Source: a virus | Lineage: Duplodnaviria > Caudoviricetes | DNA: 64,000 nucleotides | Strand: one strand, 5' to 3' | Virus record (IMG/VR): IMGVR_UViG_3300005805_000065 | Location: 1 to 64,000 of that record | Shown: piece after piece, positions 18,618 through 64,000 of the stretch | Numbering within the stretch: position 1 is the stretch's first letter | How the letters are laid out: every line of letters starts with the position of its first letter | Notes under the pieces: model-generated | What the model saw: only the letters and a program-made list of their open reading frames with translations | The model's database searches: none | What the model was told of the DNA's origin: nothing | Program-made: the position numbers and the translations under genes

Positions 18618-18868
18618 AAAGCAAAAGAATTGATATACCACAATTAAAAAGTTATTATTGCAATGAAGAATTGCGATGTGTTAGGTGTCATAACAAGATG
18701 CTTCTTGGGGTGCAATATTTTGCATCTAAGAAAAGCTACATTGATCTAACATGTGTTGGTTGTGCTCGTGGAGTTGATCTTGAATTAAGAGAATTAAATG
18801 CAATTCTCCTAGAGTTTAATTTTAAACCGGTTAAGGAAAGATATGTTGCTGCAGGACAAGATTGTTAA
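18614..18868 (+). CDS. Small Zn-ribbon protein
   Basis: CxxC...CxxC (CVRC, CVGC). Confidence 0.55.
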   Translation: MKSKRIDIPQLKSYYCNEELRCVRCHNKMLLGVQYFASKKSYIDLTCVGCARGVDLELRELNAILLEFNFKPVKERYVAAGQDC

Positions 18869-19277
18869 AAATAAATTTTACAAGTATTCTGAAACAATTG
18901 TTAAAATAAAAAAAATTGTTAAGAATATGAATCAAATTTATGCGGTGGATCTGACAACAAAGAAAGATGTTATATTTCCATATAACAATGCAGAACTAAT
19001 ACTGCACAGAATATATACTATAGGCGAGGTCGCTAAAATAGTTGAAAAAAGACCTGATACTATTCGAAAGTATGAGAAGCGAGATTTAATACCAAGTGGA
19101 AAAAAGTTTAGCGAAACCTGTGATGGGTACAAGAACTGGCGATATTATGAAAAGCAGGATGTCTACGACATGGTTGCCTTCTTTAATGGAAGAACACCGG
19201 GCAGACCTTCTAGTAATAAACCAGTACAAGCTAAAGTTATAAGAATGTCACAAAAAATCAAATTAAGAAGGAGCTAA
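18843..19277 (+). CDS. MerR-family HTH DNA-binding protein
   Basis: YTIGEVAKIVEKRPDTIRKYEKRDLIP matches the MerR HTH pattern. Confidence 0.8.
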   Translation: MLLQDKIVKNKFYKYSETIVKIKKIVKNMNQIYAVDLTTKKDVIFPYNNAELILHRIYTIGEVAKIVEKRPDTIRKYEKRDLIPSGKKFSETCDGYKNWRYYEKQDVYDMVAFFNGRTPGRPSSNKPVQAKVIRMSQKIKLRRS

Positions 19278-19279
19278 TA

Positions 19280-19495
19280 ATGGCACAAGTAAATAAACTC
19301 AATGAAGGGCAAGTGGAGATCTGGGCTTCTGTTGGTATTACCAAGAACCTAGGCAATTATGAATCCCTCAGACTAGATGCTGGTGCAAGAGTTGTTTGCA
19401 ATGGTATTGAGGATGAAGATGGCTGGAAGAAGTTGTGGGATGCTGTCGATTCACAAATAGAGGCAAAGCTCCAAGAGTTAGATGCTGGGAAATGA
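19280..19495 (+). CDS. Small hypothetical phage protein
   Basis: SD AGGAG; TKNLGNYESLRLD motif recurrent in phage replication regions. Confidence 0.6.
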   Translation: MAQVNKLNEGQVEIWASVGITKNLGNYESLRLDAGARVVCNGIEDEDGWKKLWDAVDSQIEAKLQELDAGK

Positions 19496-19785
19496 TCGAT
19501 AGTTGGAGAAAGAAAGCTCTCTGTCTAATAGACAAGAATAGCAAGTATTGGTTTTCTTATAAATATGAAGAAGTCCAGTATGCTAAAACTGTTTGCAAAT
19601 CATGCACTGTTAGAAAAGAATGCATTCTCAATATGTGGGAAACAGATTCTTTTTATGGTGTTAATGGTGGCTTATCTGAATTTGATGTAATGCAAGAAAC
19701 TTGGAAGAAGGTGAATAAGCCAGATGATTCTAACTGGAAACGAACTGATAGAGTACTTCAAAGATTGTTGCAGAAAGCATCGTAA
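19492..19785 (+). CDS. whiB: WhiB-family Fe-S transcription factor
   Basis: WRKKALC...AKTVCKSCTVRKEC...GVNGG; start at ATG 19492 overlapping the previous stop. Confidence 0.8.
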   Translation: MIDSWRKKALCLIDKNSKYWFSYKYEEVQYAKTVCKSCTVRKECILNMWETDSFYGVNGGLSEFDVMQETWKKVNKPDDSNWKRTDRVLQRLLQKAS

Positions 19786-26600: not shown

Positions 26601-27059
26601 CTAATTGGCGACAGAACATTACATGCTTACTGTGATGTTTATCAAGCTCAGGATTCAAAGTTGTTTAATATCATGATGATGAAGAAAGAAGGAATGGATC
26701 ACAAATATTCCTGGGTTTATAAGCATGATATTGGATTCATTAACGATCCGAAAACAATGATGCATGTTTTTAACATTAGAAGTTTTACAACTTCCACCGG
26801 TAAGGAGATGGCAAGCGTATACTGCTGGGATGGCAAGCAGTTTTTCAAAGTTGTTATCTTCTCTGCTGTCTATAAGAAAGTTAAAAACATCTTAAAGGAA
26901 GGAGAATGGTATGCAGCAAGACTTTCAAGAATTGAAGATAAAGAAACACTTAATCGTCTTGACTCATTCAAGCTCGATTCTGCTGATAAACTGATTACGA
27001 TAGAGGATTATATTAAGAGAAAAAATATTAAGCAGGAAGCGCATGAAGTTCTCGCATAA
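23649..27059 (+). CDS. dnaE: DNA polymerase III alpha subunit (DnaE-type, family C)
   Basis: PHP HLHCHSEYSLLDG; GRGS; YPDIDLD; KIDVLGL; FNKSHA. Confidence 0.97.
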   Translation: MTNFVHLHCHSEYSLLDGMSTPDEIAKITSTNGQIAAAITDHGTMGGVLKFQDACNKHNVKPLFGIEAYFVPSVPQDSEDTSERFHLILLAKTNEGLQKLFKINQTAWMKNFYYKPRIDFDLLEEMVDNDIIALSGCMASAISKSIMAGDTNRAQELSERFLKIFKDDFYYEVQAWNPKGLNDGLISLAATYNRPVVATADCHFPTRHDKGCEEILLMISQYPSLGAAEQRHAKEHADSIHMAGLDMVAKINNMYPNRSLRFDEINPYLANAGEVASWFKDAGYDRTDILENTIEIADKCTAKLEKRKNLLPKFMRTINSDDYLAEVTSFRLKELGLGEEYVQRLNEELGIIKQLGFADYFLIVWDLVKWADNNGIGRGTGRGSVGGSVLAYLLDISKVDPIKYNLLFSRFINPERNDYPDIDLDFEDKRRDEVKNYLATRWGEDKVAAISIYGTFKPKSAVKDVARILQVPYAEINAITPYFETIDELKSTDKGKIFVRKYPDVPILAEKLQERVRTAGVHAAGMVVSAVPLTEVCPVESRKDSQGGERSAVTAFAMEDAEAVGLIKIDVLGLKTVSVIKDALAMIRERYSVDVEAQSLALDDPKVYENFNNINTVGIFQTDAAAYRNLIERMGIDNFNDLVVSNALVRPGALLSQGQRYIDCKKGESKPKYPHEVVQSILEETYGTVIFQEQLMQMAVLLAGFTWSEADSLRKIIGKKRDAAEFDKFKDKFVSNTYLTKAQSEKIWSEFEMSALYMFNKSHAVAYSLMSYQTMWLKVNYPLEFMWALLYNESATDKITAYLMEAQRLGLKIYPPDINKSQEFFSMSLPGEDEGIRFGLTNVTGCGVSAIKEIFGKRPFNSFEEFNNKCSKSAVKAPLRENLDKVGAFESIGHVSQFDHPRYYLPVLGFPIKASEFKTEIDEFVENAADFHETISNLTLIKAVVRSTKKAQNYLRVEFEDHSGSCTVFGERNTELAQRDYVYALIGDRTLHAYCDVYQAQDSKLFNIMMMKKEGMDHKYSWVYKHDIGFINDPKTMMHVFNIRSFTTSTGKEMASVYCWDGKQFFKVVIFSAVYKKVKNILKEGEWYAARLSRIEDKETLNRLDSFKLDSADKLITIEDYIKRKNIKQEAHEVLA

Positions 27060-27738
27060 AGTATTTCATTTGGATAAAGACATAGAGAGAGAGCACCTTT
27101 ATAAATCAATAAATGATTATATTGGACAGTATTCTTCTGAGTTAGATAGCCCTACGATTGAAATATCGTGTAGAGAACATCTTGATAATTTTTATAATAC
27201 ATCAGATATTAGATTTTCAAATACTGGGTATGAATTTAATAATGAGATCGGTTGGAGATTTGGTGAATTAGGAATATGGGCAAGCAATATTGCTGCATAT
27301 AAAAAATTTCTTGAAACAGATTCTGATTGTTTAATATTGATAGAGGATGATATCGAATATATGCCAGGATTTTTTGATAATCTACTTTATTATATGTCGC
27401 AGCTTCCAGATGACTGGGATGCATTTTTTTACTACGCCCCGGATAATAGCAGTCATAATGTATCTCAAGAATTTTTAACAATCGAGCCAAATAAAATAAA
27501 TATATGCAAAACATACCAAGATTGGTCGTGTCTGTGTTATATAATTAATAGAAATACAGCTAAGAGGATTCTGGATGATGTCGTTAATCCAATCAATCTT
27601 CCGCTAGATTATTATTTTTTTAGACAACCAGATAAGTATAATTCATATACAGTAAAGCCTACATCTAAATTGTATTGCAGGATTGCTAATATGAAATCAA
27701 CATTTCAACATAAACAAAAAAGAGAGGTATTAAATTGA
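27043..27738 (+). CDS. Glycosyltransferase (GT25-like)
   Basis: GELGIWASN...LILIEDD...CYIINRNTAKRIL...LPLDY. Confidence 0.75.
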   Translation: MKFSHKVFHLDKDIEREHLYKSINDYIGQYSSELDSPTIEISCREHLDNFYNTSDIRFSNTGYEFNNEIGWRFGELGIWASNIAAYKKFLETDSDCLILIEDDIEYMPGFFDNLLYYMSQLPDDWDAFFYYAPDNSSHNVSQEFLTIEPNKINICKTYQDWSCLCYIINRNTAKRILDDVVNPINLPLDYYFFRQPDKYNSYTVKPTSKLYCRIANMKSTFQHKQKREVLN

Positions 27739-28352
27739 GTAGGGAACTTGCTGAGAAATTACCAAATTGGTTTCTAGGCAATCAGACGGAAAAAGATTTC
27801 CAAAGATTGCTTGCTGAGTTTAATGGAAAGCCAAATCTGCAATTTTTAGAAATAGGTTCGTTTTGTGGTAATAGTGCTGCATGGGTTATGCAAAATATAT
27901 TAACAGACCCATCTTGTACACTTACATGTGTTGATCCCTGGAATGGTAATGTGGCACATGAGACATTTAGTTTTGCAGAAGTTGAGGCTGCATTTGATCA
28001 GCAGCTTCAACCGTACAGTGATAGATTGATTAAGCAAAAAATGTATAGTGAAGATTATCTTATGAAAAATAGAGATAAGCAATTTGATTTTATTTATATT
28101 GATGGCGATCATATGCCTCAAGCATTTATGCTTGATGCCTTGCTTTCTTGGGAATTGTTAAAACCCGGTGGAATAATGGCAATAGATGATTATGCATGGA
28201 GTCATCCGCAGGGAGAAAGGTATAATCCAAAACAGGCAATAGATATGTTTGTCAGCATGTATTCAGAGCACTGTGTCATTCTTGAAAAAGGTTGGCAAGT
28301 TTGGATTAGAAAAAATTCTAATTATATTAGACCAGAACACATACACGAATAA
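27735..28352 (+). CDS. Class I SAM-dependent methyltransferase (Methyltransf_24-like)
   Basis: LEIGSFCG, CVDPW, FDFIYIDGDH, LKPGGIMAIDDY; GTG/TTG-type start overlapping the previous stop. Confidence 0.85.
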   Translation: MSRELAEKLPNWFLGNQTEKDFQRLLAEFNGKPNLQFLEIGSFCGNSAAWVMQNILTDPSCTLTCVDPWNGNVAHETFSFAEVEAAFDQQLQPYSDRLIKQKMYSEDYLMKNRDKQFDFIYIDGDHMPQAFMLDALLSWELLKPGGIMAIDDYAWSHPQGERYNPKQAIDMFVSMYSEHCVILEKGWQVWIRKNSNYIRPEHIHE

Positions 28353-28360
28353 GGAGAAAT

Positions 28361-29275
28361 ATGTTATTAGTAGATAAGCGAAAAGGTGATTTGATGCCGG
28401 TACACGAAGTGATACCGACACCAAGTATTGGATTAAATAGAGCGCTCGGTGGTGGACTTAATACCGGCGCTACGCATTTATTTTGGGGCACACCGTCTGT
28501 CGGTAAGACGACAATGTGCTTCAGAATTCTTGCAGAAGCCCAAAAACTTGGCTATCGACCAGTTATCATTGATTCAGAGTCTTCATATAATGATGCATAT
28601 GCCACCAAATGTGGTATAGATGTTGATGATATTGTTGTTGTTCAATCAACTATTGTAGAAGAGATACTTAAAAATATTTATGAATATCTTACTCACCCTA
28701 CAGAAAAACATATTTTCTTGTTTGACAGTCTTTCTAATATTATCAAAGAAGAATTTTATGATAAGCCAGAAGGCGGGAAAGCAATGGGGTTGCAATCAAG
28801 ATCCCAGGGCTTTTTGCTTCAGAAGCTTGTTAATTATTTGCATAAAGAGAGAAACATAATGCTCTTCGTTGCTCACCAAACAGTTGATCTTAGCGGTATG
28901 TTTGCTGTGACCAAAGCAAAGATGGGTAATACTGTGCATCACAATATGCATAACATTGTTAAACTGTTTTTATCAATGTCGAAGAGCGAAATGGAAAGAG
29001 ATGATACAAATCTCATTACAAGCCAACGTGCAACTTGGACAATTGAAAAAACAAAACAGTTACCAAGTATTGGAACTACTGGATATTATTATGTTCTTCC
29101 GCAAGAAGGTAAGATTGATGCAGATAGAGAACTAATTGATATCGCTGTTGAAATGGAGATCATCCAGCGCAAGGGGGCGTGGTATTCTTATCAAGACCAA
29201 AAGTGGAATGGTTTGACTGCAATTGAACTTACAGATAAACAGCGAGCAGAGATTGGAAAAGCGATTCTTGGATGA
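28361..29275 (+). CDS. recA: RecA/UvsX-like recombinase
   Basis: Walker A GTPSVGKT, IDSE, FDSL, IIQRKGAWYSY. Confidence 0.92.
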   Translation: MLLVDKRKGDLMPVHEVIPTPSIGLNRALGGGLNTGATHLFWGTPSVGKTTMCFRILAEAQKLGYRPVIIDSESSYNDAYATKCGIDVDDIVVVQSTIVEEILKNIYEYLTHPTEKHIFLFDSLSNIIKEEFYDKPEGGKAMGLQSRSQGFLLQKLVNYLHKERNIMLFVAHQTVDLSGMFAVTKAKMGNTVHHNMHNIVKLFLSMSKSEMERDDTNLITSQRATWTIEKTKQLPSIGTTGYYYVLPQEGKIDADRELIDIAVEMEIIQRKGAWYSYQDQKWNGLTAIELTDKQRAEIGKAILG

Positions 29276-29571: not shown

Positions 29572-29894
29572 TGCCAGATATCATTATTAATAAAGAAATT
29601 ATTGCTGATCAAATGGGCGATAAAGCTGAAGAGTTTGTTGAGTGCATCAGGATTGTTCAAGACATTATTGAAAATCCAGATCACTACTTGGGAACTCAAG
29701 CTGTTAAGTATGCTAATATACTTGCAGCATACAGAACATTAATGATTGTTAAATCACAAGCATTCAAGAGAAAGTCTGCAATTATGAGTGATCAAGATAA
29801 GTTTGTAAATGATATATGGAAGACAATGTACGAAGCTCTAACAGAAAATATAAATGCATTAAAAATTGCCGGAAAGGGCGGTTATAACCAATGA
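29571..29894 (+). CDS. Hypothetical helical protein
   Basis: Translationally coupled ORF in the recombination cluster. Confidence 0.55.
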   Translation: MPDIIINKEIIADQMGDKAEEFVECIRIVQDIIENPDHYLGTQAVKYANILAAYRTLMIVKSQAFKRKSAIMSDQDKFVNDIWKTMYEALTENINALKIAGKGGYNQ

Positions 29895-30616
29895 AATCAT
29901 TAAAACAGCTAAGAAAGCCAAAGGAAGTTGTAGTTATTGAATCAAAATCCCCGGCAGACTTGGAAAATACTCTATGTAAGGCAATAGATGACCAGCTTTT
30001 AAAGAAGAATGAAACAACTTTTAAAAAGGTTGGTGGTTTTCATCCAAGCTACACAAACCAATGTTCTAGGTATTGGTATTATTTATTTGAAGGTGTAAAT
30101 GTAACGCCAGATTTTAGTCCGCAAACTCATAGAATATTTGATAATGGTCATGCTGTTCATGAAAGATTGTACAGTTACTTTAGAGATATGGGTATTCTTG
30201 TAGACGAAGAAATAAAAGTAACATACTCAGATCCGCCAATTGAAGGCACAGCAGATGGTATCATTAATTGGTATGGAGATAAGCTGATAGAGTTAAAATC
30301 AATTAGCTCTGAAGGCTTCCATTACAGACAGATTTATAAAAAACCAAAAGACGAACACTATCGTCAAGCTCAGATATATATGCAATGTTTAGATCTTGAT
30401 GGTGGTTTTGTTATTTACGAAAACAAAAATAATCAAGAGATATTGCCAATTTATATTGAAAAAGATCAAGACTTCATAGACAAATTATTTAAAAAATATA
30501 GAGAGTACTATGGAAACTTTGTAAGACAAAGTATTCCAGACAGACCATACAAGAGAACATCTAAAAATTGCTCTTCTTGTGATTTGGCTGCTTTATGCTG
30601 GGGAGATAGTGGATAG
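29891..30616 (+). CDS. Solo Cas4-like PD-(D/E)XK exonuclease
   Basis: HPS...CSRYWYY, GTADG...IELKS, QAQIYM, CSSCDLAALC. Confidence 0.85.
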   Translation: MKSLKQLRKPKEVVVIESKSPADLENTLCKAIDDQLLKKNETTFKKVGGFHPSYTNQCSRYWYYLFEGVNVTPDFSPQTHRIFDNGHAVHERLYSYFRDMGILVDEEIKVTYSDPPIEGTADGIINWYGDKLIELKSISSEGFHYRQIYKKPKDEHYRQAQIYMQCLDLDGGFVIYENKNNQEILPIYIEKDQDFIDKLFKKYREYYGNFVRQSIPDRPYKRTSKNCSSCDLAALCWGDSG

Positions 30617-30920
30617 TGGTGTTTTTAGAGTTTGCAAAAACCAAGAGTGTAATAAAAAGTTTGAAGCAAAAGTCTACAATAGTATATATTGCTCTGCAGA
30701 ATGTAGAAGGATAGTTACTAATAAAAAATTATTAGAAAACTATTACGAAAAAAAACGTAATAAAGGTAAGAAAAGAACTTGTGCAACTAACGGATGCACA
30801 ACTGTATTGTCTCGTTACAATAAGGAAAATATATGCGAAAGGTGCAAAGACGAAAGGTTCATACAAAGGCTAGTAAGTTGGGGCTGGGACGAAGAAAAGC
30901 TTCGAAGAGAAAAAATGTGA
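30609..30920 (+). CDS. Cys-rich Zn-finger protein
   Basis: CKNQEC...YCSAEC...CATNGC...CERC. Confidence 0.6.
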   Translation: MDSGVFRVCKNQECNKKFEAKVYNSIYCSAECRRIVTNKKLLENYYEKKRNKGKKRTCATNGCTTVLSRYNKENICERCKDERFIQRLVSWGWDEEKLRREKM

Positions 30921-31498
30921 ATATAAAGTCTATTGCCAAAAGCAACTTTACTAAAATTTTGTCTATAGATCCATCGTCACATTCTTTAGGCTGGGCTGTA
31001 ATTGAGATGGGGGTTAGGCAACCTCGTTTGATAAAGTGTGGAAAAATTAAATTCCCTAAGTCCTCGGAAATGCATATTAAATTTCAAGCAATAAATGATG
31101 GCTTAGCTGAAATATGTAATGAGTATAAACCAAATGAATGCGTAATAGAGCAATCTGTGTACATTCAAAACTTTCAAACTAGCAGAATTATTTCTTATAT
31201 CATCGGCTACTCTTGGGGTATTGCTCAAAACTACTGCTCTAAAGTTATTGATATCAATCCGATGATATGGAAACGCGGGATCGGTTATAAAAATCTTTCT
31301 AAACAAGATAAGGAATACCTCCTCACAGAGGCAAGCAAAAAGAAAGAGAGAAAAGATAGGGTGAGAGATATTATCACCGGATATTTTGAAATGACAGAAG
31401 AAGATCTTGACGATGATGATATTATCGACGCAGTTGGTATTGGTTTATGGTATTATTTAATGTTGAGCGCAAATGGCACTAGAACCGTACAAAGATAA
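30917..31498 (+). CDS. ruvC: RuvC-like Holliday junction resolvase
   Basis: ILSIDPSSHSLGWA, VIEQ, DDIIDAVGIG. Confidence 0.85.
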   Translation: MNIKSIAKSNFTKILSIDPSSHSLGWAVIEMGVRQPRLIKCGKIKFPKSSEMHIKFQAINDGLAEICNEYKPNECVIEQSVYIQNFQTSRIISYIIGYSWGIAQNYCSKVIDINPMIWKRGIGYKNLSKQDKEYLLTEASKKKERKDRVRDIITGYFEMTEEDLDDDDIIDAVGIGLWYYLMLSANGTRTVQR

Positions 31499-31769: not shown

Positions 31770-32560
31770 TGCAAAGAAAAGTAGCAATAGGTGATATTGC
31801 AATTTTTGGTGAAATGGACATGCTCTATAACCAAGTTCGTGTTCTTGAGGCAAGGCAAAATGAAACTCAATTTAAATGCCTTGGATCCGGCACATGTTGC
31901 AAGATAGGAATTACTATACACATGGCTGAGTGTGCAAATATTGCTTACAATATAAACAGGCAATATTATTTGCATCTTGAAAATAAAGGTGAGCAGTTTG
32001 CAAAAGAATGGTTTGATGAAGTTGTAAATAACTTAAAAGAAGCTATGTATGACGATAGCTGGGAATTTGGCGGCGAAACAAAAAGATGGTGCGCGTTTTA
32101 TAAAAACGGTTGTACTATTTATGGTTTTCGACCGATGGTATGTAGAAGTTTTGGCACGATAGCCGGAGTTGATGACTACTGCCCTCGTATTAGAAATGCT
32201 TATGGTAATATCGATTTCTTTGCCGGGGAGCCAGTCGAGAATACAATTAGGCAATTTCAATTCTTATTAAAGAAATACGCCGAAGATAAAGATTCAAATT
32301 ACGATGTTGTTGTGTATATGCCATTAGGTGTTCTTAGTTTTTTGATCTCCACAGAGGAGTTGCAAAAATTAGCTGACACTACAGACGATAAGATGTGGCG
32401 AGCCGTTCAAGGATGGTACAATTATAGAGTTGAGTACACAAAAATTCATGGGTTGCCGCTACCAAGATTAAAGCAAGAAGCCGAGGCTGCCGGTGGAGTG
32501 ATTGGATTTAAAATTGATGAAGATACAATGGACAACAGCAGTAGTATTGAGCAAGTCTGA
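31769..32560 (+). CDS. YkgJ/CxxCxxCC-type Fe-S cluster protein
   Basis: CLGSGTCC...CAFY.NGCTIYGFRPMVCRSF. Confidence 0.8.
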   Translation: MQRKVAIGDIAIFGEMDMLYNQVRVLEARQNETQFKCLGSGTCCKIGITIHMAECANIAYNINRQYYLHLENKGEQFAKEWFDEVVNNLKEAMYDDSWEFGGETKRWCAFYKNGCTIYGFRPMVCRSFGTIAGVDDYCPRIRNAYGNIDFFAGEPVENTIRQFQFLLKKYAEDKDSNYDVVVYMPLGVLSFLISTEELQKLADTTDDKMWRAVQGWYNYRVEYTKIHGLPLPRLKQEAEAAGGVIGFKIDEDTMDNSSSIEQV

Positions 32561-33611
32561 GGGCTACAGTGATTCTGCCTCATATCTTAAATTTCATTTA
32601 GCAAAAGACTTTGATTTAATTGAAGATAATATAACTGATCCAAGTCGGGAGCAGTTGGATGAGATAAGAAAGATGCATAATGCTGGGATAGGGTTTATGT
32701 ATGAAAAAACTACAAGGTCTGCTGATGTTTATGTGCACAATGCACTTCCAATAATTTTTAGTAAAAAATCTGGATATAATGTATGCTTCACATATTGGGA
32801 GACAAACAAAATACCCTCCGGTTGGCTGGATTCAATCAACAGTGCAGATGAGCTATGGACAACATCCAAATGGGCTAAAGATGTATTTATCAATTCTGGT
32901 GTCAAGATACCTGTGTATGATTTCAAGCTTGGTGTTAATTCCTTGAATTACTTCCCGCCAGCAAAGCCCAAAGATCTGGTAAAAGATAAATTTACCTTCT
33001 TGTGCATAGGCTCTCCTTCGACTCGTAAGAACTCCCAGATGTCCGTAGACGCTTTTCTAAAGCTGTTTAGTGGCAATGACAGATTCCACATGATTTATAA
33101 ATCAAATGGTCCCCCAGACGCTAGGTTGAACAATAATATTCCTGATGCAAGAATGCCATTAAATGCGCACTCTAGGATAAAAGTTATTGACTGGCAGGTT
33201 AGTGAGGAAGATCTTGCTGGGATATACGATCAAGTTGATTGCGTTCTTTACCCTACAAGCGGTGAAGGATGGGGCTTGCTTCCTATTCAAGGTATAGCTA
33301 AAGGGATCCCGACTATTTGCACTAATGCAACTGCATGCACAGAGTTTGCAGAGCTGTCTATTCCTCTTAATTTTAAATGGGGAACAAAGAATATGTTTGG
33401 CATTTACGATGGATGTGGTGACTGGGCTGAGCCGGATTTCGATGATTTATGTGATAAAATGTTATATGTTGTAAATAACTATGATGAGGCTGCTAAAAAG
33501 ACATTTGATGGCGCACAATGGGTTCACCAAAATCTTACTTGGGATAAGGTAAGTGAGGGATATAAAGAGAGATTATGTCAGATATCGAGCACGTTAAAAA
33601 CAAATCTTTAA
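32517..33611 (+). CDS. Glycosyltransferase (GT-B fold, GT4-like)
   Basis: RKNSQ, YDQVDCVLYPTSGEGWGLLPIQGIAKGIPTI. Confidence 0.85.
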   Translation: MKIQWTTAVVLSKSEGYSDSASYLKFHLAKDFDLIEDNITDPSREQLDEIRKMHNAGIGFMYEKTTRSADVYVHNALPIIFSKKSGYNVCFTYWETNKIPSGWLDSINSADELWTTSKWAKDVFINSGVKIPVYDFKLGVNSLNYFPPAKPKDLVKDKFTFLCIGSPSTRKNSQMSVDAFLKLFSGNDRFHMIYKSNGPPDARLNNNIPDARMPLNAHSRIKVIDWQVSEEDLAGIYDQVDCVLYPTSGEGWGLLPIQGIAKGIPTICTNATACTEFAELSIPLNFKWGTKNMFGIYDGCGDWAEPDFDDLCDKMLYVVNNYDEAAKKTFDGAQWVHQNLTWDKVSEGYKERLCQISSTLKTNL

Positions 33612-36715: not shown

Positions 36716-36729
36716 AGTATACTTTGCTT

Positions 36730-37548
36730 ATGCCATTATTTGAGACACAAAAAATCGAAATTAGCAAAGAAATCACTTCTAAGTGGAATGTTCTAATCGC
36801 AATACCTTGTTATGATCAATTAATATCTGAACCGACAGTTTTATCATTAATCAAAACTATGATGTATTTTAGAGATCATGGAATTAAATTCGGTCTCTGC
36901 ACAATTACTGACAGCCTAATCAACAGGGCTAGAAATAATGTTGTTGCCAAGTTTATGGCGTTTGATAAAGCTACGCATTTAATGTTTATTGATGCTGACA
37001 TTGCGTGGGAGCCGGAAGCTATTATAAAGCTTCTTTGGCATGATAAAGATGTTATTACTGCAGCTTACCCAATAAAACAAATTGAGTGGGGTAGGGTTGA
37101 AGAAAATGTAAAGGCTGGAATGTCAAAAGATCTGCTTTTAGAAAACAGCGTTAGATTTGTTGTCAACCCTGTTAAAACTGCAGACAATAGAACTCTTAAT
37201 GTAAGCAATGGTGCGATAGAAATCTTTGATGCCGGCACAGGGTTTATGTTAATTAAGAAAGAAGTTATTCATAAATTAATTGAGAAGCACCCGGAGCTTA
37301 AATATAATGATGACACTGGTGCTTTAAATGACGAAGAAAAGAATTGGACTTATGCTTTCTTTAATTCGTATATTGATCCACATCTTAATAGATTCCTTTC
37401 TGAAGATTATGGATTCTGTAGGTATTGGCAAAACATTGGCGGCAAGATTTGGGTTGAGCCAGGTATTGAATTAACACATATAGGTCGTATGAAATATAAA
37501 GGAACTATGATGTCATTCATAGAGAAGCACGCAAAGGTAGTCGAGTAA
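36730..37548 (+). CDS. Glycosyltransferase (GT-A fold, GT2-like)
   Basis: SLINRARN, THLMFIDADI, LSEDYGFC; TATACT 6 nt before ATG 36730. Confidence 0.8.
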   Translation: MPLFETQKIEISKEITSKWNVLIAIPCYDQLISEPTVLSLIKTMMYFRDHGIKFGLCTITDSLINRARNNVVAKFMAFDKATHLMFIDADIAWEPEAIIKLLWHDKDVITAAYPIKQIEWGRVEENVKAGMSKDLLLENSVRFVVNPVKTADNRTLNVSNGAIEIFDAGTGFMLIKKEVIHKLIEKHPELKYNDDTGALNDEEKNWTYAFFNSYIDPHLNRFLSEDYGFCRYWQNIGGKIWVEPGIELTHIGRMKYKGTMMSFIEKHAKVVE

Positions 37549-46290: not shown

Positions 46291-46641
46291 ATGAACAGTA
46301 AGGTATTTAGTCCAATTAAAGAAGTATGGCGTGACAAAGCTGCTTGTAAAGGTGTATCAATTGATACATTCTATTTTGAGTCAACTGAAGAAAATAGAAA
46401 CTTGAAAAAGGAGACAGAAAAGGCTAAGGCTTTTTGTAAAGAATGCCCTGTTGCTGAGCAATGCTTGGCTTATGCTTTAAACGAAGATATTAGGTTCGGA
46501 GTATGGGGTGGTTTTACATCAAGAGAACGCGGATCATTACGCAAAATGTTTAGAACAGACGACTACAAAGCAGTTGCTAGTAAAGTTGTAAATAAAACTA
46601 TGCATATGATCAGGTACAAGCTTCAGAAAAATGAGCTCTAA
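46291..46641 (+). CDS. whiB: WhiB-family transcription factor (second copy)
   Basis: WRDKAAC...AKAFCKECPVAEQCLAYAL...GVWGG...ER. Confidence 0.92.
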   Translation: MNSKVFSPIKEVWRDKAACKGVSIDTFYFESTEENRNLKKETEKAKAFCKECPVAEQCLAYALNEDIRFGVWGGFTSRERGSLRKMFRTDDYKAVASKVVNKTMHMIRYKLQKNEL

Positions 46642-51945: not shown

Positions 51946-52022
51946 GCTGGCGTATACCCTCACTCTTATAAAGTGTAGAAAGGTTAACTGGTGACATATG
52001 GGTTCAAGTCCCATCGCCAGCA
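51946..52022 (+). tRNA. Non-canonical tRNA-Ile(UAU)-like RNA
   Basis: GCTGGCG/CGCCAGC-A acceptor; ATGGG-TTCAAGT-CCCAT T arm; CACT-CTTATAA-AGTG anticodon arm; no D arm in the normal position. Confidence 0.7.
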
Positions 52023-60039: not shown

Positions 60040-60055
60040 TGTTCCACGTGGAACA
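60040..60055. promoter_or_regulatory. parS-type palindrome TGTTCCACGTGGAACA
   Basis: Perfect 16-bp palindrome conforming to the bacterial parS consensus; intergenic. Confidence 0.75.
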
Positions 60056-60101: not shown

Positions 60102-60128
60102 CAAAAAAATTTGTCTAAAATGGCATAT

Positions 60129-60216
60129 AAAAATAAATAAAAATAGGTAAAAACATAGTAAAAAGTGGTAAAAAGTGGGGAAAAGTAGGGAAAAATGGGG
60201 CAAAAGATAGTAAAAA
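60129..60216 (+). other. Nine helically phased A4-5 tracts (curved DNA)
   Basis: Tracts start at 60129, 139, 149, 160, 170, 181, 191, 202 and 212; mean period 10.4 bp. Confidence 0.85.
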
Positions 60217-60254
60217 GTGTGCGATTGTGAAATGCTCATATCTTGAGACCCTAT

Positions 60255-60277: not shown

Positions 60278-60730
60278 TGGCATAAATTTAAAAGAATATA
60301 CTGATAGAAACAAATAAACCCCGATTTTTTCATTGCCCTTACTATCGACCTTTTAATCGAGAGAAGTCTCGAGGATTTTTAGTACAGTTCAAACGACTAA
60401 TCAACCAATTTTAATATGCAGAGAAAGCCGGATTGATTACAACGTTGTTATTACCGACTTTATAATGTCGGGGTAGATCAATGGATCTATATCGTCTTTG
60501 GTATAGGAATAAATAGAGCCGACTACCCAGCCATTGGCACACAAGGGTGGTCCCTAAAAAAAATTTGCCTGCATCCGCATAGGCAAAACTAAATACAATT
60601 TGAAACAGATATGTAGATATATAGTTATGATTAGGAATATAGATTAAAGTAAAGGAAAAAAGAAATAAAAATAAATTGGTGTACAAATAAGAATACATTC
60701 TTATTCGGAACACCAACTCAAAGGTTTAGT

Positions 60731-60812
60731 TTGAAAATATGTAATCAAGTTAGGTAAATACAAATGCAAAACAATTGGTGGTCAAGCAGCGCTTAGCTGC
60801 TAAGACCACCAA
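60731..60812. promoter_or_regulatory. Promoter-less operator + inverted-polarity hairpin module 0
   Basis: TTGAAAATATGTAATCAA (60731-48), then hairpin 60775-60812 with TAAGC loop on the minus strand. Confidence 0.7.
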
Positions 60813-60814
60813 CG

Positions 60815-60842
60815 AAAATGCGTGCGCCTTTCGGCGCACGCA
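60815..60842 (-). terminator. Cassette 1 terminator
   Basis: 10-bp GC stem, GAAA loop on the minus strand, T4. Confidence 0.8.
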
Positions 60843-60868
60843 CTCCGTGTGAACGGCATTGCCATTGG

Positions 60869-61150
60869 TTATTTGGCTAGCGAAACCACACACTCACCGT
60901 CAGTAGTCCATTGAATGGACACTTCCAATGAGTGCTGGCTTGCCATTGAAACAACACGATTGCGCACTTTGTTTTTGTGTGCAATGTAGTTGTCGTCTTC
61001 GGGATTGCCTTGTCCGGCTTCGTAGATGAATGCGTCATCTTCTACGCCAGCGTCAAGTGCGAGCAGTTCGGCTTCCAGGATTGGGTCCTGGAATGCGTCA
61101 CGACCACGCTTGACTAGTCGGGATTGGATATCGCTCAGGTTCACTTTCAT
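60869..61150 (-). CDS. Cassette 1 gene, paralogue family KVNL..IQSRLVKRGRDA (copy 1)
   Basis: SD GAAAGG; 93 aa; obvious similarity to copies 2 and 3. Confidence 0.85.
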   Translation of the reverse strand: MKVNLSDIQSRLVKRGRDAFQDPILEAELLALDAGVEDDAFIYEAGQGNPEDDNYIAHKNKVRNRVVSMASQHSLEVSIQWTTDGECVVSLAK

Positions 61151-61197
61151 AGTGCGCCTGCCTTTCTTTGTGATTGGGCAACCCGTTCACGAAGAAC

Positions 61198-61294
61198 ACA
61201 CTACCTAGACATTGAGAATGTGTATTCAACAGACTATGCCTATGCATCTAGTGAACGGGCGTGCAACGCAGCTAGGCGCTGGCTCGCACTCCCG
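61198..61294 (-). promoter_or_regulatory. Cassette 1 promoter/operator + hairpin
   Basis: -10 TAGTGT (61198-203), operator 61212-29, hairpin 61256-94 (loop TAGGC on +). Confidence 0.85.
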
Positions 61295-61308
61295 CCAGGT
61301 AAAAGAAT

Positions 61309-61392
61309 TAGAAAATGTATATTAAAAGTGAGACACATAGCGATCCCTAAAGGCTGGCGGTCAAGCAGCGTATAGCTGCTAAGAACGCCAGC
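61309..61392. promoter_or_regulatory. Promoter-less degenerate operator + inverted hairpin
   Basis: TAGAAAATGTATATTAAA (14/18 match to the cassette 1 operator), hairpin 61353-92 with TATAC loop on -. Confidence 0.7.
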
Positions 61393-61395
61393 GAG

Positions 61396-61423
61396 AAACG
61401 CCCCGCCCTTGCGGGGCGGGGCG
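61396..61423 (-). terminator. Cassette 2 terminator
   Basis: GC stem, GCAA loop on -, short U tract. Confidence 0.75.
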
Positions 61424-61439
61424 CTCTCACTTGCGGGGA

Positions 61440-61742
61440 TTACTTGCGAAACGAAACGACCATTTCGCCAGCGTCAGTCCATTGGACGCTGATTTCCACC
61501 TCGTCCCCGAGGTGGCGAGTGGCGAGGGAGTTGACACGATTCCGCCAAGTGTTCTTGTGGTTCGTGTACTCCTCGTTGGTGCTGACGCACTCACCCTCGA
61601 ATGTCGCCTCCTCGAAGAGGAATGCGTCATCAGGGGTGCTCGGGTCAAGGGCGAGCAATTCCGCTACGAGTTCAGGGTTCTCGTATGCGTCACGCCCACG
61701 CTTGACCAAGCGGGACTGAATCTGTTTCAGGTTGACCTTCAT
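61440..61742 (-). CDS. Cassette 2 gene, paralogue copy 2
   Basis: SD AAGGAG 7 nt before ATG 61742 (MKVNLKQIQSRLVKRGRDA); 100 aa. Confidence 0.85.
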   Translation of the reverse strand: MKVNLKQIQSRLVKRGRDAYENPELVAELLALDPSTPDDAFLFEEATFEGECVSTNEEYTNHKNTWRNRVNSLATRHLGDEVEISVQWTDAGEMVVSFRK

Positions 61743-61797
61743 TTCATTTCTCCTTGTTGCGAGGTGATAGGGAATTGCGTCCTCGTCAACACTCAAC

Positions 61798-61895
61798 ACA
61801 CTAACTAGGTAATGAGAATGTGTACTCAACTAACTATGTCTATGGCAACGCAACGCCGGTCGTGCAATGTAGCTATGCGCTACTATGCCCGCCCG
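61798..61895 (-). promoter_or_regulatory. Cassette 2 promoter/operator + hairpin
   Basis: -10 TAGTGT, operator 61812-29, hairpin 61857-95 (loop TATGC). Confidence 0.85.
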
Positions 61896-61910
61896 CCGGG
61901 GTAAGGTAAT

Positions 61911-61993
61911 TAGAAAATGTGTATTAAAGAGAATGTGAAAGCGATCTCACTGCGGCTGGCGGTCAAGAGCGAATAGCTCGACAGAACGCCAGC
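61911..61993. promoter_or_regulatory. Promoter-less degenerate operator + inverted hairpin
   Basis: TAGAAAATGTGTATTAAA, hairpin 61955-93 with TATTC loop on -. Confidence 0.7.
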
Positions 61994-61996
61994 GAG

Positions 61997-62025
61997 AAAC
62001 GCCCCGACCCTTTCGGGTCGGGGCG
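61997..62025 (-). terminator. Cassette 3 terminator
   Basis: CGCCCCGACCC/GGGTCGGGGCG, GAAA loop on -. Confidence 0.8.
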
Positions 62026-62048
62026 CTTTCGGGGAGTAGGCGTGGTGG

Positions 62049-62345
62049 TTACGCCTTGTATGACACCACCATCTCGCCATCCACTGTCCACTGGATGGAG
62101 AGTGAGCCATCGGGGATACCGATGCTCGATGCGACCGACTTGACACGGTTGCGCCACAAGTTCTTGTGGTTCACGTACTCGTCGCTGTCGGTGTCACCTG
62201 CGAACGTCGCTTCCTCAAAGAGGAAGGCATCGTCGTTCTCAGGGCTGAGCGCAGTCAGTTCTGCGCTCAACTGCTCGTTCTCGTAGGCATCACGCCCACG
62301 CTTCACGAGCCTGCTTTGGATGTCTTTCAGGTTTACCTTTGCCAT
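62049..62345 (-). CDS. Cassette 3 gene, paralogue copy 3
   Basis: SD AAAGGAG before ATG 62345 (MAKVNLKDIQSRLVKRGRDA); 98 aa. Confidence 0.85.
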   Translation of the reverse strand: MAKVNLKDIQSRLVKRGRDAYENEQLSAELTALSPENDDAFLFEEATFAGDTDSDEYVNHKNLWRNRVKSVASSIGIPDGSLSIQWTVDGEMVVSYKA

Positions 62346-62397
62346 TGGGATGGCTCCTTTATGGGTGTCGCACGATACCTTCGTGCTGACATCCATC

Positions 62398-62494
62398 ACA
62401 CTACTTAGGCATTGAGAAAGTGTATTCAACTTAGTATGCGTATGCTACGAGAGAACTGGCGTGCAAGCGGAGCTAAGCGCTCCTCGCCCACCAG
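62398..62494 (-). promoter_or_regulatory. Cassette 3 promoter/operator + hairpin
   Basis: -10 TAGTGT, operator 62412-29, hairpin 62456-94 (loop TAAGC). Confidence 0.85.
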
Positions 62495-62498
62495 CCGC

Positions 62499-62537
62499 AA
62501 GACAAAAAGAAAAGGGGTGAGCCTTTCGGCTCACCCC
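62499..62537 (-). terminator. Cassette 4 terminator
   Basis: GGGGTGAGCC/GGCTCACCCC, GAAA loop, long U tract on -. Confidence 0.9.
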
Positions 62538-62544
62538 AGGTCTT

Positions 62545-62859
62545 TCACCTACGCCTGCGCTCTCGTTGGAGCCTGCGTATGGCTGGTTTGGTGTTGTCGA
62601 GGTAGATACCCCATTCAGTACCTTCTCGACGGTATCGCACGGCGTAGTCGCGAACCCTCACACACTTGCTGTCCTTGCGTGCCAACACGTGCTTTGCCGT
62701 GGTGAACACTTTGGTGAACATCACGGCTGTCTCGCTGTCCGAGACAGTCAGAAGTTTCACCATTGTGGGACGACGCTTGAGCCTGAGCACTCCGAACGCC
62801 TTTCGGAGCCGAGCGAGAGCCCAGTATCCGTATTCGTCTGCCAATGTCATTGTTGCCAT
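62545..62859 (-). CDS. Cassette 4 gene, basic hypothetical protein
   Basis: SD GAAAGG; 104 aa lying between promoter and terminator. Confidence 0.75.
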   Translation of the reverse strand: MATMTLADEYGYWALARLRKAFGVLRLKRRPTMVKLLTVSDSETAVMFTKVFTTAKHVLARKDSKCVRVRDYAVRYRREGTEWGIYLDNTKPAIRRLQRERRRR

Positions 62860-62909
62860 TGTTGCCTTTCTCGCAACCGTTGTCTGAACGGTTGCCGTTG
62901 TTGATTAGT

Positions 62910-63008
62910 ACACTAACTAGGCATTGAGAATGTGTACTCAACTATGGAGAGTGTATCTACCGTGTGTGCGGGCGTGCAACCTAGCTAAGCGCTCGATCGC
63001 CCACCCGC
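62910..63008 (-). promoter_or_regulatory. Cassette 4 promoter/operator + hairpin
   Basis: -10 62910-15, operator 62924-41, hairpin 62968-63008 (loop TAAGC). Confidence 0.85.
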
Positions 63009-63011
63009 CCT

Positions 63012-63051
63012 AAGACAAAAAAAGAGGGCGAGGGGCTTGCGCCCCTCGCCC
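63012..63051 (-). terminator. Cassette 5 terminator
   Basis: 11-bp GC stem, GCAA loop, U7 tract on -. Confidence 0.9.
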
Positions 63052-63057
63052 GACTTC

Positions 63058-63300
63058 TTATTCCTCTTCGGCTTCCATTGCGTCAGCCATTACCTGCCAG
63101 CACTCAGCGCCGATTCCTGAGATGAGAACCTCACGGTCGTCGAGGCTCAGGAATGGGAGAGCGTCCTGAATCAGGTACTCTCCACTCTGCCATTGGGAGA
63201 GCCCGACCATTGTTGCGATGAACAACTCGTCGGGGACAGTCACCGTGTGGTTAGCACCACAGATGACGCACTCCTTGTTGTTGGTGATTGTTGCGGACAT
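63058..63300 (-). CDS. Cassette 5 gene, small Cys-containing protein
   Basis: MSATITNNKECVICG...LIQDALPFLSLDDREVLISG..ECW; purine-rich SD. Confidence 0.8.
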   Translation of the reverse strand: MSATITNNKECVICGANHTVTVPDELFIATMVGLSQWQSGEYLIQDALPFLSLDDREVLISGIGAECWQVMADAMEAEEE

Positions 63301-63350
63301 TGCTTTCCCTTCCGCAGTTGGTATCGGACCAACTGCTGTTGTTGAGAAGA

Positions 63351-63448
63351 ACACTACATAGGCATTGAGAATGTGTACTCAACTATGGAGACTGTGTGTA
63401 TCGTGTGAGTGGGCGTTCGCGAAGCTAGGCGCTTAGCCGCCCGCCCAC
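63351..63448 (-). promoter_or_regulatory. Cassette 5 promoter/operator + hairpin
   Basis: -10 63351-56, operator 63365-82, hairpin 63409-48 (loop TAGGC). Confidence 0.85.
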
Positions 63449-63450
63449 CA

Positions 63451-63493
63451 AAGACAAAAAAAGAGGGGAGCCGAGGCTTTCGCCTCGGCTCCC
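63451..63493 (-). terminator. Cassette 6 terminator
   Basis: 12-bp GC stem, GAAA loop, U7 tract on -. Confidence 0.9.
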
Positions 63494-63521
63494 ACTCCGT
63501 CAGGGCAAGCGTCGGATTGGA

Positions 63522-63857
63522 CTAGCGCCGAGCGAGGCGCAAGGCACGAAGTACCTTGCGAACCCTCGCCTTGCGCTTATTGCGCTTGCGTGTGCGACGA
63601 GCCTTGCGCTTCGTCGCCTCGCTCCACGGCTTGCGCTTGCGCTTGGGCTTGGCGATGTGCCTCACCTGCGCCTTGGCGCGAGCCTTGGGGCTGGCAACGA
63701 CCGCTGGGGTCGTCGGGGCGATGACCGTCGCCTGCGGTGCTGGCGCAGTTGCCTGCGCTGGCTTGACTACCACCGCTGGCTTGACTGCCTGCGCTGGCTG
63801 TGTCTGCCCTGCGAGAAGTGCTCCTCGCAAGGCTGGGTGCTTGCCTGACTTAGCCAT
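63522..63857 (-). CDS. Cassette 6 gene, Ala/Pro/Thr-rich protein with Lys/Arg-rich tail
   Basis: SD AGGAGG before ATG 63857; C-terminal KPKRKRKPWSEATKRKARRTRKRNKRK. Confidence 0.75.
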   Translation of the reverse strand: MAKSGKHPALRGALLAGQTQPAQAVKPAVVVKPAQATAPAPQATVIAPTTPAVVASPKARAKAQVRHIAKPKRKRKPWSEATKRKARRTRKRNKRKARVRKVLRALRLARR

Positions 63858-63898
63858 GATGTACCTCCTGGCTTGTTGGGCTTGCCCTGACACCAACT

Positions 63899-63997
63899 AC
63901 CTTACCTAGGCATTGAGAATGTGTACTCAACTAACAACGAGACAGACATCGTGAGAGTGGGCGTACAGCGCAGCTAAGCGCTGATCCGCACGCCCAC
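63899..63997 (-). promoter_or_regulatory. Cassette 6 promoter/operator + hairpin
   Basis: -10 TAAGGT at the same offset as TAGTGT in the other units, operator 63913-30, hairpin 63957-97 (loop TAAGC). Confidence 0.85.
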
Positions 63998-64000
63998 CAG

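Follow-up and report, generated by a model that had tools for sequence, protein, structure and literature searches.

The DNA examined here is a 64,000-bp window, bases 1-64,000 of the linear, 83,571-bp IMG/VR contig IMGVR_UViG_3300005805_000065 (G000), which is estimated to be about 80% complete, and the element in question is an array of small gene cassettes at the end of that window. Between positions 60,750 and 65,250 of the contig lies a GC-rich island of about 4.5 kb made up of nine tandem units on the minus strand, six of them within the window and three past its edge. A sequence-only reading of the window had described an array of six units that continued beyond the edge; the repeated units and the continuation were borne out, but a search with the promoter box brought the count to nine. 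Each unit reads, in order, a GC-rich terminator, a hairpin that we call H, a 26-nt promoter box with a −10-like TANNNT, a leader, a Shine-Dalgarno sequence (SD), and a small orphan open reading frame (ORFan). The terminator-H-promoter part, which we refer to as the scaffold, spans 150-210 bp and is repeated in direct orientation, and coding sequence makes up 53% of the island. The 24-mer TTGAGTACACATTCTCAATGCCTA occurs in eight copies with at most three mismatches and in one with four; these copies all lie within 61,206-65,195 on the minus strand, and a control with the pattern reversed gave 0 matches. The 26-nt box is likewise confined to the array: in a relaxed search, sites with 0-1 mismatches all fell within 60,748-65,341 and consisted of the nine boxes with a −10, three AT-rich copies without one (P'), and one AT-rich copy (P0) at 65,341, which lies upstream of the array, has TAACAT at 21 nt, and is conserved in the related contig L012.

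All features of the six units inside the window lie on the minus strand. Unit 4 has its hairpin H at 63957..63998 (outer stem GGTGGGCG/CGCCCAC, apex AGC-GCTTA-GCT) and its promoter at 63899..63930, composed of the 26-nt box (63930-63905) and TAAGGT (63904-63899). Its leader and open reading frame (ORF) occupy 63522..63898, with a 41-nt leader containing a predicted hairpin and the SD AGGAGG, and the ORF (63857-63522) encodes a very basic, K/R-rich protein of 111 aa that has an ortholog at 43% identity in L012; the terminator at 63466..63493 has a 12-bp GC stem, a GAAA loop, and a T-run. Unit 5 follows with H at 63409..63449, the box and TAGTGT at 63351..63382, and leader and ORF at 63058..63350, where the ORF (63300-63058) encodes an 80-aa protein with a CxxC motif that belongs to the widespread cargo family 2; its terminator, with a GCAA loop, is at 63026..63051. 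In unit 6, H (62968..63008) and the box with TAGTGT (62910..62941) precede a leader and ORF (62545..62909) for a 104-aa ORFan (62859-62545) with an ortholog in the related contig L020, and the terminator (62514..62537) again has a GAAA loop. Units 7, 8, and 9 carry the three paralogs of cargo family 1. The first of these (98 aa, ORF 62345-62049) lies with its leader at 62049..62397, behind H at 62456..62494 and the box with TAGTGT at 62398..62429, and ends at a terminator (61997..62028) with a GAAA loop and a weak T-run, TTTCTCG; a flipped hairpin, H' (61956..61992, apex GAGC-TATTC-GCTC), and an AT-rich P' box copy without a −10 (61913..61928) come next. The second paralog (100 aa, ORF 61742-61440) is encoded in unit 8, with H at 61856..61899, the box and TAGTGT at 61798..61829, leader and ORF at 61440..61797, and a GCAA-loop terminator at 61399..61424, followed by another H' (61354..61391, AGCAGC-TATAC-GCTGCT) and another AT-rich P' lacking a −10 (61311..61326). 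Unit 9 comprises H (61256..61296), the box with TAGTGT (61198..61229), the leader and ORF (60869..61197), and a terminator with a GAAA loop (60819..60843); its 93-aa protein (ORF 61150-60869), the third paralog, is 86% identical to the product of the final cassette of the related contig L013. A flipped H' (60775..60812, AGCAGC-TAAGC-GCTGCT) and the last AT-rich P' (60733..60748) close the array, which ends in an AT-rich hairpin with a long T-run (60655..60716) that recurs at this place in L012 and L013, where its outer stem has other sequences.

The terminators are GC-rich hairpins with a T-run that follow the stop codon of the preceding ORF, with H beginning a few bases further on, and six of them pass a strict hairpin-plus-T-run scan, all on the array strand. 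Eight of the nine have a GAAA or GCAA loop, among them all six for which the sequence-only reading had described GNRA terminators, and the one after the 33-aa ORF of unit 2 has a longer loop. In 9/9 units the box and −10 lie within about 110 nt after a terminator, which is the arrangement of the composite motifs of the PeSL (promoter-stem-loop) cassettes discussed below. Leaders are 41-55 nt long, except for the 21-nt leader of the 33-aa ORF, and all end in a strong SD, with most containing a predicted hairpin of −9 to −21 kcal/mol. In the three distal units, H' and a P' box form an additional module that separates the terminator from H, and the TANNC loop of H' is the reverse complement of the GNNTA loop of H.

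The −10-like TANNNT (TAGTGT, TAAGGT, or TATAGT) is found exactly 20 nt after TTGAGT/TTGAAT in all nine units, and a scan for canonical sigma-70 promoters (TTGACA-N16-18-TATAAT), of the kind found in PeSL motifs, recovered none of the nine because the distance from TTGAGT to TANNNT is 20-21 bp. Across 184 distinct cassettes from this phage and its relatives, the −10 has a constant offset of 20 nt in the G000 clade and of 21 nt in the other clade, the distance from the apex of H to the box is 44-49 nt, and most leaders measure 44-54 nt. The box contains a dyad, TTGAG-N8-CTCAA, which in the other clade is GAAT-ACAC-ATTC. Its left part is common to the relatives (TTGAGTAC / TTGAATAC / TTTAGTAC), and its right part is uniform inside each genome but different between genomes, resulting in a promoter "dialect" with identities of 0.71-0.82 within genomes versus 0.55-0.75 between them.

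Hairpin H, which is present before every box at an apex-to-box distance of 46-48 nt in the nine units, is about 40 nt long and has an outer stem (such as that of unit 4), internal loops, and an apex of the form xGC-GNNTA-GCx. Its covariation was assessed on 31 copies from four genomes, with pairs counted for the structure read from that same alignment. In this alignment 84% of cells are paired, versus 25-45% after shifting the 3' partner by 1-3 columns, and both sides have changed in 7 of the 14 pairs; pair 9-49, for instance, is CG in 15 copies, UA in 7, AU in 6, GC in 2, and unpaired in one. None of 500 shuffles reached the observed covariation score. The GC...GC pairs of the apex and the TA of the loop are invariant in all 31 copies. 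There are 15 G-T wobbles and 2 A-C mismatches, which suggests that H is selected on the sense strand, as RNA or sense single-stranded DNA, rather than as a symmetric cruciform, with the caveat that the wobble count is possibly biased by base composition. Rfam returned no family for H at its gathering score. Within the array the hairpin is found in both orientations (H and H'), and in the more distant arrays L070-L073 every unit has direct box repeats on both sides of H, a copy lacking a −10 before it and the promoter box after it. These four arrays are on the IMG/VR contigs 3300034082_001517, 3300042430_001780, 3300034071_001566, and 3300044731_001587. The sequence-only reading had pointed to a hairpin not accounted for by known analogues and had named ordinary promoters without conserved hairpins as the finding that would overturn it; the conservation and covariation of H support the former and speak against the latter.

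Relatives of the array were found in two ways. Through the 191-aa protein encoded in the flank we reached the IMG/VR contigs L011 (86% identity) and L012 (70%), and cargo family 1 led to L013, 44 metagenome loci, and nine IMG/VR loci, five of them new (L069-L073) and four repeats (L013, L012, L032, L030). The scaffold is present in all relatives. At least eight contig lineages and some 40 additional freshwater contigs have it, the arrays comprising 7-16 units in 4.1-9.3 kb; at nine loci the arrays have 43-55% GC versus 27-42% in the flanks. Relatives with 70-86% identity in the flanks have the island at the same position. The recurrence of the same scaffold and island in these relatives therefore identifies the array as a conserved feature of the phage group and not a chimera. 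No match to the island was retrieved by megablast against 50,697 phage records, nor did the degenerate 24-mer match in IMG/VR, where the relatives use other box variants.

What the scaffold carries varies greatly. We counted 19 cargo families in 36 cassettes of four phages and, over all loci, 48 families (16 of them singletons) in 274 cassettes. Family 1 always occupies the last 2-4 positions of the array and the other positions are variable, as the orders written in family numbers illustrate: 14-15-9-5-3-1-1 in L030 and 14-37-15-38-9-13-5-8-28-2-13-5-3-18-1-1 in L029. The nine units of G000 read 24-16-11-25-2-20-1-1-1 (this order was checked by hand, the automatic caller having produced one extra, spurious first entry) and those of L020 read 11-16-26-2-20-1-1-1; what separates the two arrays, whose flanks are about 80% identical, is one swap in order, one additional unit, and one replaced unit. 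One cassette of L019 is missing from L049, with scaffold repeat at either edge of the gap in the alignment, and the order 6-4-12-1 in L053 differs from 6-12-7-10-4-1 in L019 with breakpoints at the promoter box. The ORFans of the variable region are flanked by the motif, and the indel junctions examined lie in it. A comparison of cassettes among related genomes had been proposed with the sequence-only reading, for which invariant order and content would have been fatal; instead, number, order, and cargo all differ, and the junctions fall in the scaffold where they have been mapped.

The phage is equipped for general recombination. The window contains genes for a UvsX/RecA-like recombinase (28361-29275), a Cas4-type/RecE-like exonuclease (29891-30616), and a RuvC-like resolvase (30833-31498), all on the plus strand, and the earlier statement that no recombinase was visible is correct only for site-specific and HUH enzymes. 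Searches for such enzymes in the three genomes G000, G001, and G002, which are 77-90% complete, detected no Phage_integrase (PF00589), Resolvase, or Y1 HUH transposase domain.

We consider it probable that the six units at 60,731-64,000 make up the proximal two thirds of a hyperplastic array of nine cassettes in a lytic freshwater actinophage, shuffled by homologous recombination in the manner of PeSL and moron elements and carrying host-takeover cargo. Each cassette would be a complete transcription unit, from terminator through H, box/−10, leader, and SD to the ORFan. We infer that the 150-210-bp direct repeats serve as portable homology for the recombination enzymes of the phage, because the junctions lie in the scaffold; the UvsX-like protein, the Cas4-type exonuclease, and the RuvC-like resolvase are the presumed shuffling enzymes, and whole units could thereby be deleted, duplicated, replaced, and reordered. 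The cargo would be made immediately after infection from an island whose codon usage suits the host rather than the phage. The modular, recombination-expandable platform envisaged from the letters of the window agrees with the turnover among relatives, the junctions in the scaffold, and the PeSL-like composite repeat.

The cargo ORFs encode proteins of 33-111 aa and, as the sequence-only reading had it, are unrelated or paralogous: the three family 1 paralogs are 52-58% identical and the other six are unrelated ORFans, including the 33-aa membrane peptide of unit 2. Differences between orthologs fall on third codon positions at about 3:1, and the cargo ORFs are therefore real genes. Searches of Pfam, PHROGs, NCBIfam, and PADLOC with the nine cargo proteins and the divergently encoded neighbour assigned no named function, the sole library match of the cargo being that of the unit 5 protein to phrog_20898 (function unknown). 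The AlphaFold model of family 1 is a small alpha/beta domain with a predicted local distance difference test score (pLDDT) of 83, for which neither a PDB match (E≤0.001) nor an ESM Atlas neighbour turned up. A profile search of 1.84 billion representatives retrieved 53 family 1 clusters; a few profile matches in giant proteins were judged spurious, being RTX-like or otherwise repetitive. No relatives of family 1 were found in 185,579 prokaryote species genomes. The cargo most likely consists of host-takeover or anti-defence proteins made immediately after infection.

The timing part of this proposal draws on composition. Along the genome GC content runs at 31-45%, rises to 53-63% at about 60,750-65,250, and then falls back, so that the island has 55% GC versus 37% for the genome, a contrast absent from the sequence-only reading, and the GC content of third codon positions (GC3) is 0.68 in the cargo versus 0.30 in 28 backbone genes. 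Within their amino acids, TTA (Leu) and AGA (Arg) make up 0% of cargo codons versus 27% and 64%, respectively, in the backbone, ATA (Ile) 6% versus 31%, and AAT (Asn) 23% versus 75%; the contrast is weaker for the codons of the phage Thr and Ala tRNAs (ACA 29% versus 52%, GCA 35% versus 42%). The phage encodes six tRNAs, namely Leu-UAA, Arg-UCU, Thr-UGU, Ala-UGC, Asn-GUU, and one with a CAU anticodon; at window positions 51946-52022, ARAGORN called no tRNA. TTA and AGA, which the cargo does not use, are thus codons read by the phage's own tRNAs, and ATA would join them should the tRNA with the CAU anticodon be an Ile tRNA modified with lysidine. Most simply, translation of the cassettes would rely on the unmodified host machinery right after infection, and that of the backbone would follow once phage tRNAs are available; the codon contrast supports early timing without proving it. 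Two other possible explanations for the GC content of the island are GC-biased gene conversion in a recombination hot spot and escape from Lsr2-type silencing of AT-rich DNA. Lsr2 and Sigma70_r2 domains are absent from the phage genomes.

Several points weigh against this account. Only a few junctions have been mapped at the nucleotide level, and no function was found for any cargo protein by library, fold, or profile searches. The promoters may need a factor and hence be middle rather than immediate-early, and the boxes of a genome may have changed in concert through co-evolution with a regulator instead of through gene conversion. We infer rather than observe the activity, timing, and strength of the cassette promoters, the factor or polymerase that would read the box, the operator role that the sequence-only reading gave to the box, and any role of H.

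The alternative that we take most seriously, although we hold it to be clearly the less likely one, is that the box is the site of a dedicated trans-acting factor, with the overlong 20-21-bp spacer making the promoters factor-dependent and the array a switched regulon, middle or repressible, in which shuffling still occurs. The fixed spacer of the 184 distinct cassettes, the dyad in the box of both clades, the failure of the canonical sigma-70 scan to find any of the nine promoters, and the P' copies without a −10, which sit at the same distance from the hairpin and in L070-L073 come before every H, would all fit such a factor. The spacing and dyad resemble those of MerR-type promoters, or sigma appropriation at T4 middle promoters. 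In MerR-type promoters such as Pmer (TTGACT-N19-TAAGGT), the spacer is also overlong and a dyad lies near or over the −35 element and spacer; moreover, three units here have TAAGGT as their −10 and the phage has a gene for a protein with a MerR-type helix-turn-helix (HTH) domain (18843-19277, plus strand). The candidates for the factor are this protein, the two WhiB-family proteins of the phage (genes at 19435-19785, plus strand, and 46291-46641), with a phage WhiB acting on sigma-A region 4, and a virion or host protein. The spacer of 20-21 bp nevertheless differs from that of Pmer, and the MerR-like protein, which is 86-90% identical in G001 and G002 and thus more conserved than the array flanks, has no evident coiled-coil or effector part, and its HTH region is invariant in three phages with differing right halves of the box. 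Because its HTH does not vary with the box, we set this protein aside as the likely reader of the box. In addition, TANNNT is the typical −10 element for actinobacterial sigma-A, whose promoters often rely on it alone, and the host-like codon usage favours expression before phage products accumulate. The gene of the MerR-like protein is directly upstream of the first WhiB gene, and the second WhiB gene is 27 kb away.

The hairpin itself invites the thought that cassettes are mobilised by a site-specific or single-strand mechanism recognising H, similar to integron attC sites or HUH/REP systems. Each cassette boundary has one H, a conserved but imperfect hairpin whose stems covary and whose loop does not change; it occurs in both orientations, and its wobble excess suggests that one particular strand folds. 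We nevertheless find this mechanism unlikely, given that none of the domains expected of its enzyme (Phage_integrase, Resolvase, or Y1 transposase) was found in the three genomes, which are 77-90% complete, that the mapped breakpoints are at the promoter box or anywhere in the scaffold and not specifically at H, and that the cassettes have their own promoters, unlike those of integrons, and H has no attC R/L boxes. More improbable by far is that the GC-rich block is an assembly chimera or recent foreign insertion whose repeats are ordinary promoters of a static operon. The abrupt jump from 35% to 55% GC at about 60,750 is what such a block would produce, but AT-rich phage DNA lies on both sides within one contig, AT-rich P' modules are interleaved in the island, independent contigs from different samples have the same island in the same syntenic place, and the content and order of the array are not static. 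A more speculative proposal, which we rate as doubtful, sees in H and its flanking direct box copies a novel type of cis element instead of a spare terminator: either a phage or host protein would bind the GNNTA loop of this strand-specific hairpin and so license the overlong-spacer promoters, or H would be a cassette-capture site for an unrecognised recombinase, and the GC-rich, host-codon island would let an AT-rich phage express its first genes in an actinobacterial host ahead of its own tRNAs, possibly despite Lsr2-type silencing.

Among known systems, the closest is PeSL, in which ORFans are lost, replaced, and circularised as the general recombination system of the phage exchanges composite terminator/promoter motifs (Arbiol et al. 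2010, PMC2839356; Comeau et al. 2014, PMC4122927). As in the PeSL elements of T4-type myoviruses, small ORFans are flanked here by a composite repeat of terminator stem-loop and promoter, and indels, replacements, and reorderings have their junctions in that repeat, with general recombination machinery only and no integrase; the PeSL analogy drawn by the sequence-only reading was sound in these respects. In contrast to PeSL, the array belongs to an unrelated, whiB-encoding, freshwater siphovirus-like lineage and forms one contiguous block of 7-16 units instead of scattered motifs, its promoter is an array-specific box with a 20-21-bp spacer and not a sigma-70 consensus, it has in addition the covarying hairpin H, whose GNNTA loop keeps a distance of 44-49 nt from the box, and its island is 9-20 GC points above the flanks with host-like codon usage. 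What distinguishes the array is this combination of regularity, non-canonical promoter, H element, and compositional and codon partition.

Other analogues share fewer features. Morons, described in lambdoid and other phages by Hendrix and colleagues, are isolated insertions, usually expressed from the prophage and without a shared scaffold. Like them, the cassettes are single genes with their own promoter and terminator, a base composition unlike that of their neighbours, and variable presence, but here many units are on one scaffold in a phage without an integrase. Prophage expression also finds no counterpart here, as no integrase or resolvase was found in the three genomes and family 1 is absent from the prokaryote species genomes. 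The host-takeover module of SPO1 and the pre-early region of T5 likewise group many small early genes, served by several strong promoters and terminators, and the gene products subvert the host; these clusters lie in terminal repeats and use canonical host promoters, and to our knowledge they have neither a repeated hairpin element nor a compositional island. Integron cassettes, which are promoterless and need IntI and attC sites with R/L boxes, are also tandem single-gene cassettes of highly variable content separated by imperfect hairpin-forming sites, but each cassette here has its own box/−10, H has no R/L boxes, and PF00589 is absent from G000, G001, and G002.

The two WhiB-family proteins match with E-values of 1e-21 and 8e-11, both above the Pfam cut-off. 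The WhiB family is restricted to Actinobacteriota and their phages and serves as an actinophage marker (PMC10202952; PMC10914622), and the actinophage label given by the sequence-only reading therefore stands. A search for the host through WhiB or cargo family 1 among 185,579 species genomes yielded no relatives. The genome also encodes DnaB, a primase, and a DnaE-like polymerase whose best matches are to Streptomyces phages (37% identity). The ORF at window positions 36-9332, cut by the contig start, encodes a tape measure protein of at least 3098 aa, a length that implies a very long tail. An N4-like interpretation, with hairpin promoters and a giant virion RNA polymerase, was rejected since the 3098-aa ORF is this tape measure protein and H lies 46-48 nt upstream of the box and not at the start site. 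As part of our best explanation, the phage is probably a lytic, whiB-encoding, siphovirus-like freshwater actinophage with a backbone of about 37% GC, where "freshwater" is used because the contig names of relatives look like those of lake metagenomes. Its replication module contains glycosyltransferase-like genes (27043-27738, 32502-33611, 36724-37548) and a DNA methyltransferase-like gene (27735-28352), which together may serve DNA modification.

Several features of the surroundings can be added. Downstream of the array, in a 0.7-kb non-coding stretch, the perfect palindrome TGTTCCACGTGGAACA (window 60040-60055) matches the parS consensus, and a match to TGTTNCACGTGNAACA is found about 800 bp past the array in L013, L016, L018, L019, L020, and L022 and not in L012. 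Seven to nine A-tract repeats (GGTAAAAAGTG-like), phased at 10-11 bp, at window 60119-60219 predict bent DNA; they sit between converging transcription units and could mark an origin, packaging site, or genome end. On the other side of the array, a small Cys-rich gene without a family match (contig 65,534-65,827, plus strand) is divergent from the array and conserved in L012 as an 87-aa ORF, there on the opposite strand. A second short rise in GC (54%) is found outside the window at contig 81,001-81,500.

PeSL-style shuffling has so far been documented in T4-type myoviruses, and the array extends it to unrelated, globally distributed, uncultured freshwater actinophages, in a form much more regular than PeSL, with 7-16 units in one array on one scaffold. 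The invariant-loop hairpin H is an unexplained element worth biochemical study, and the scaffold is a compact, insulated expression unit that is potentially useful for actinobacterial synthetic biology. The near-complete separation of codons between island and backbone, matched to the tRNA set of the phage, would provide a clean natural case of temporal codon partitioning. Finally, the 48 ORFan families collected so far are prime candidates for host-takeover or anti-defence proteins directed at the abundant and hard-to-culture freshwater Actinobacteriota.

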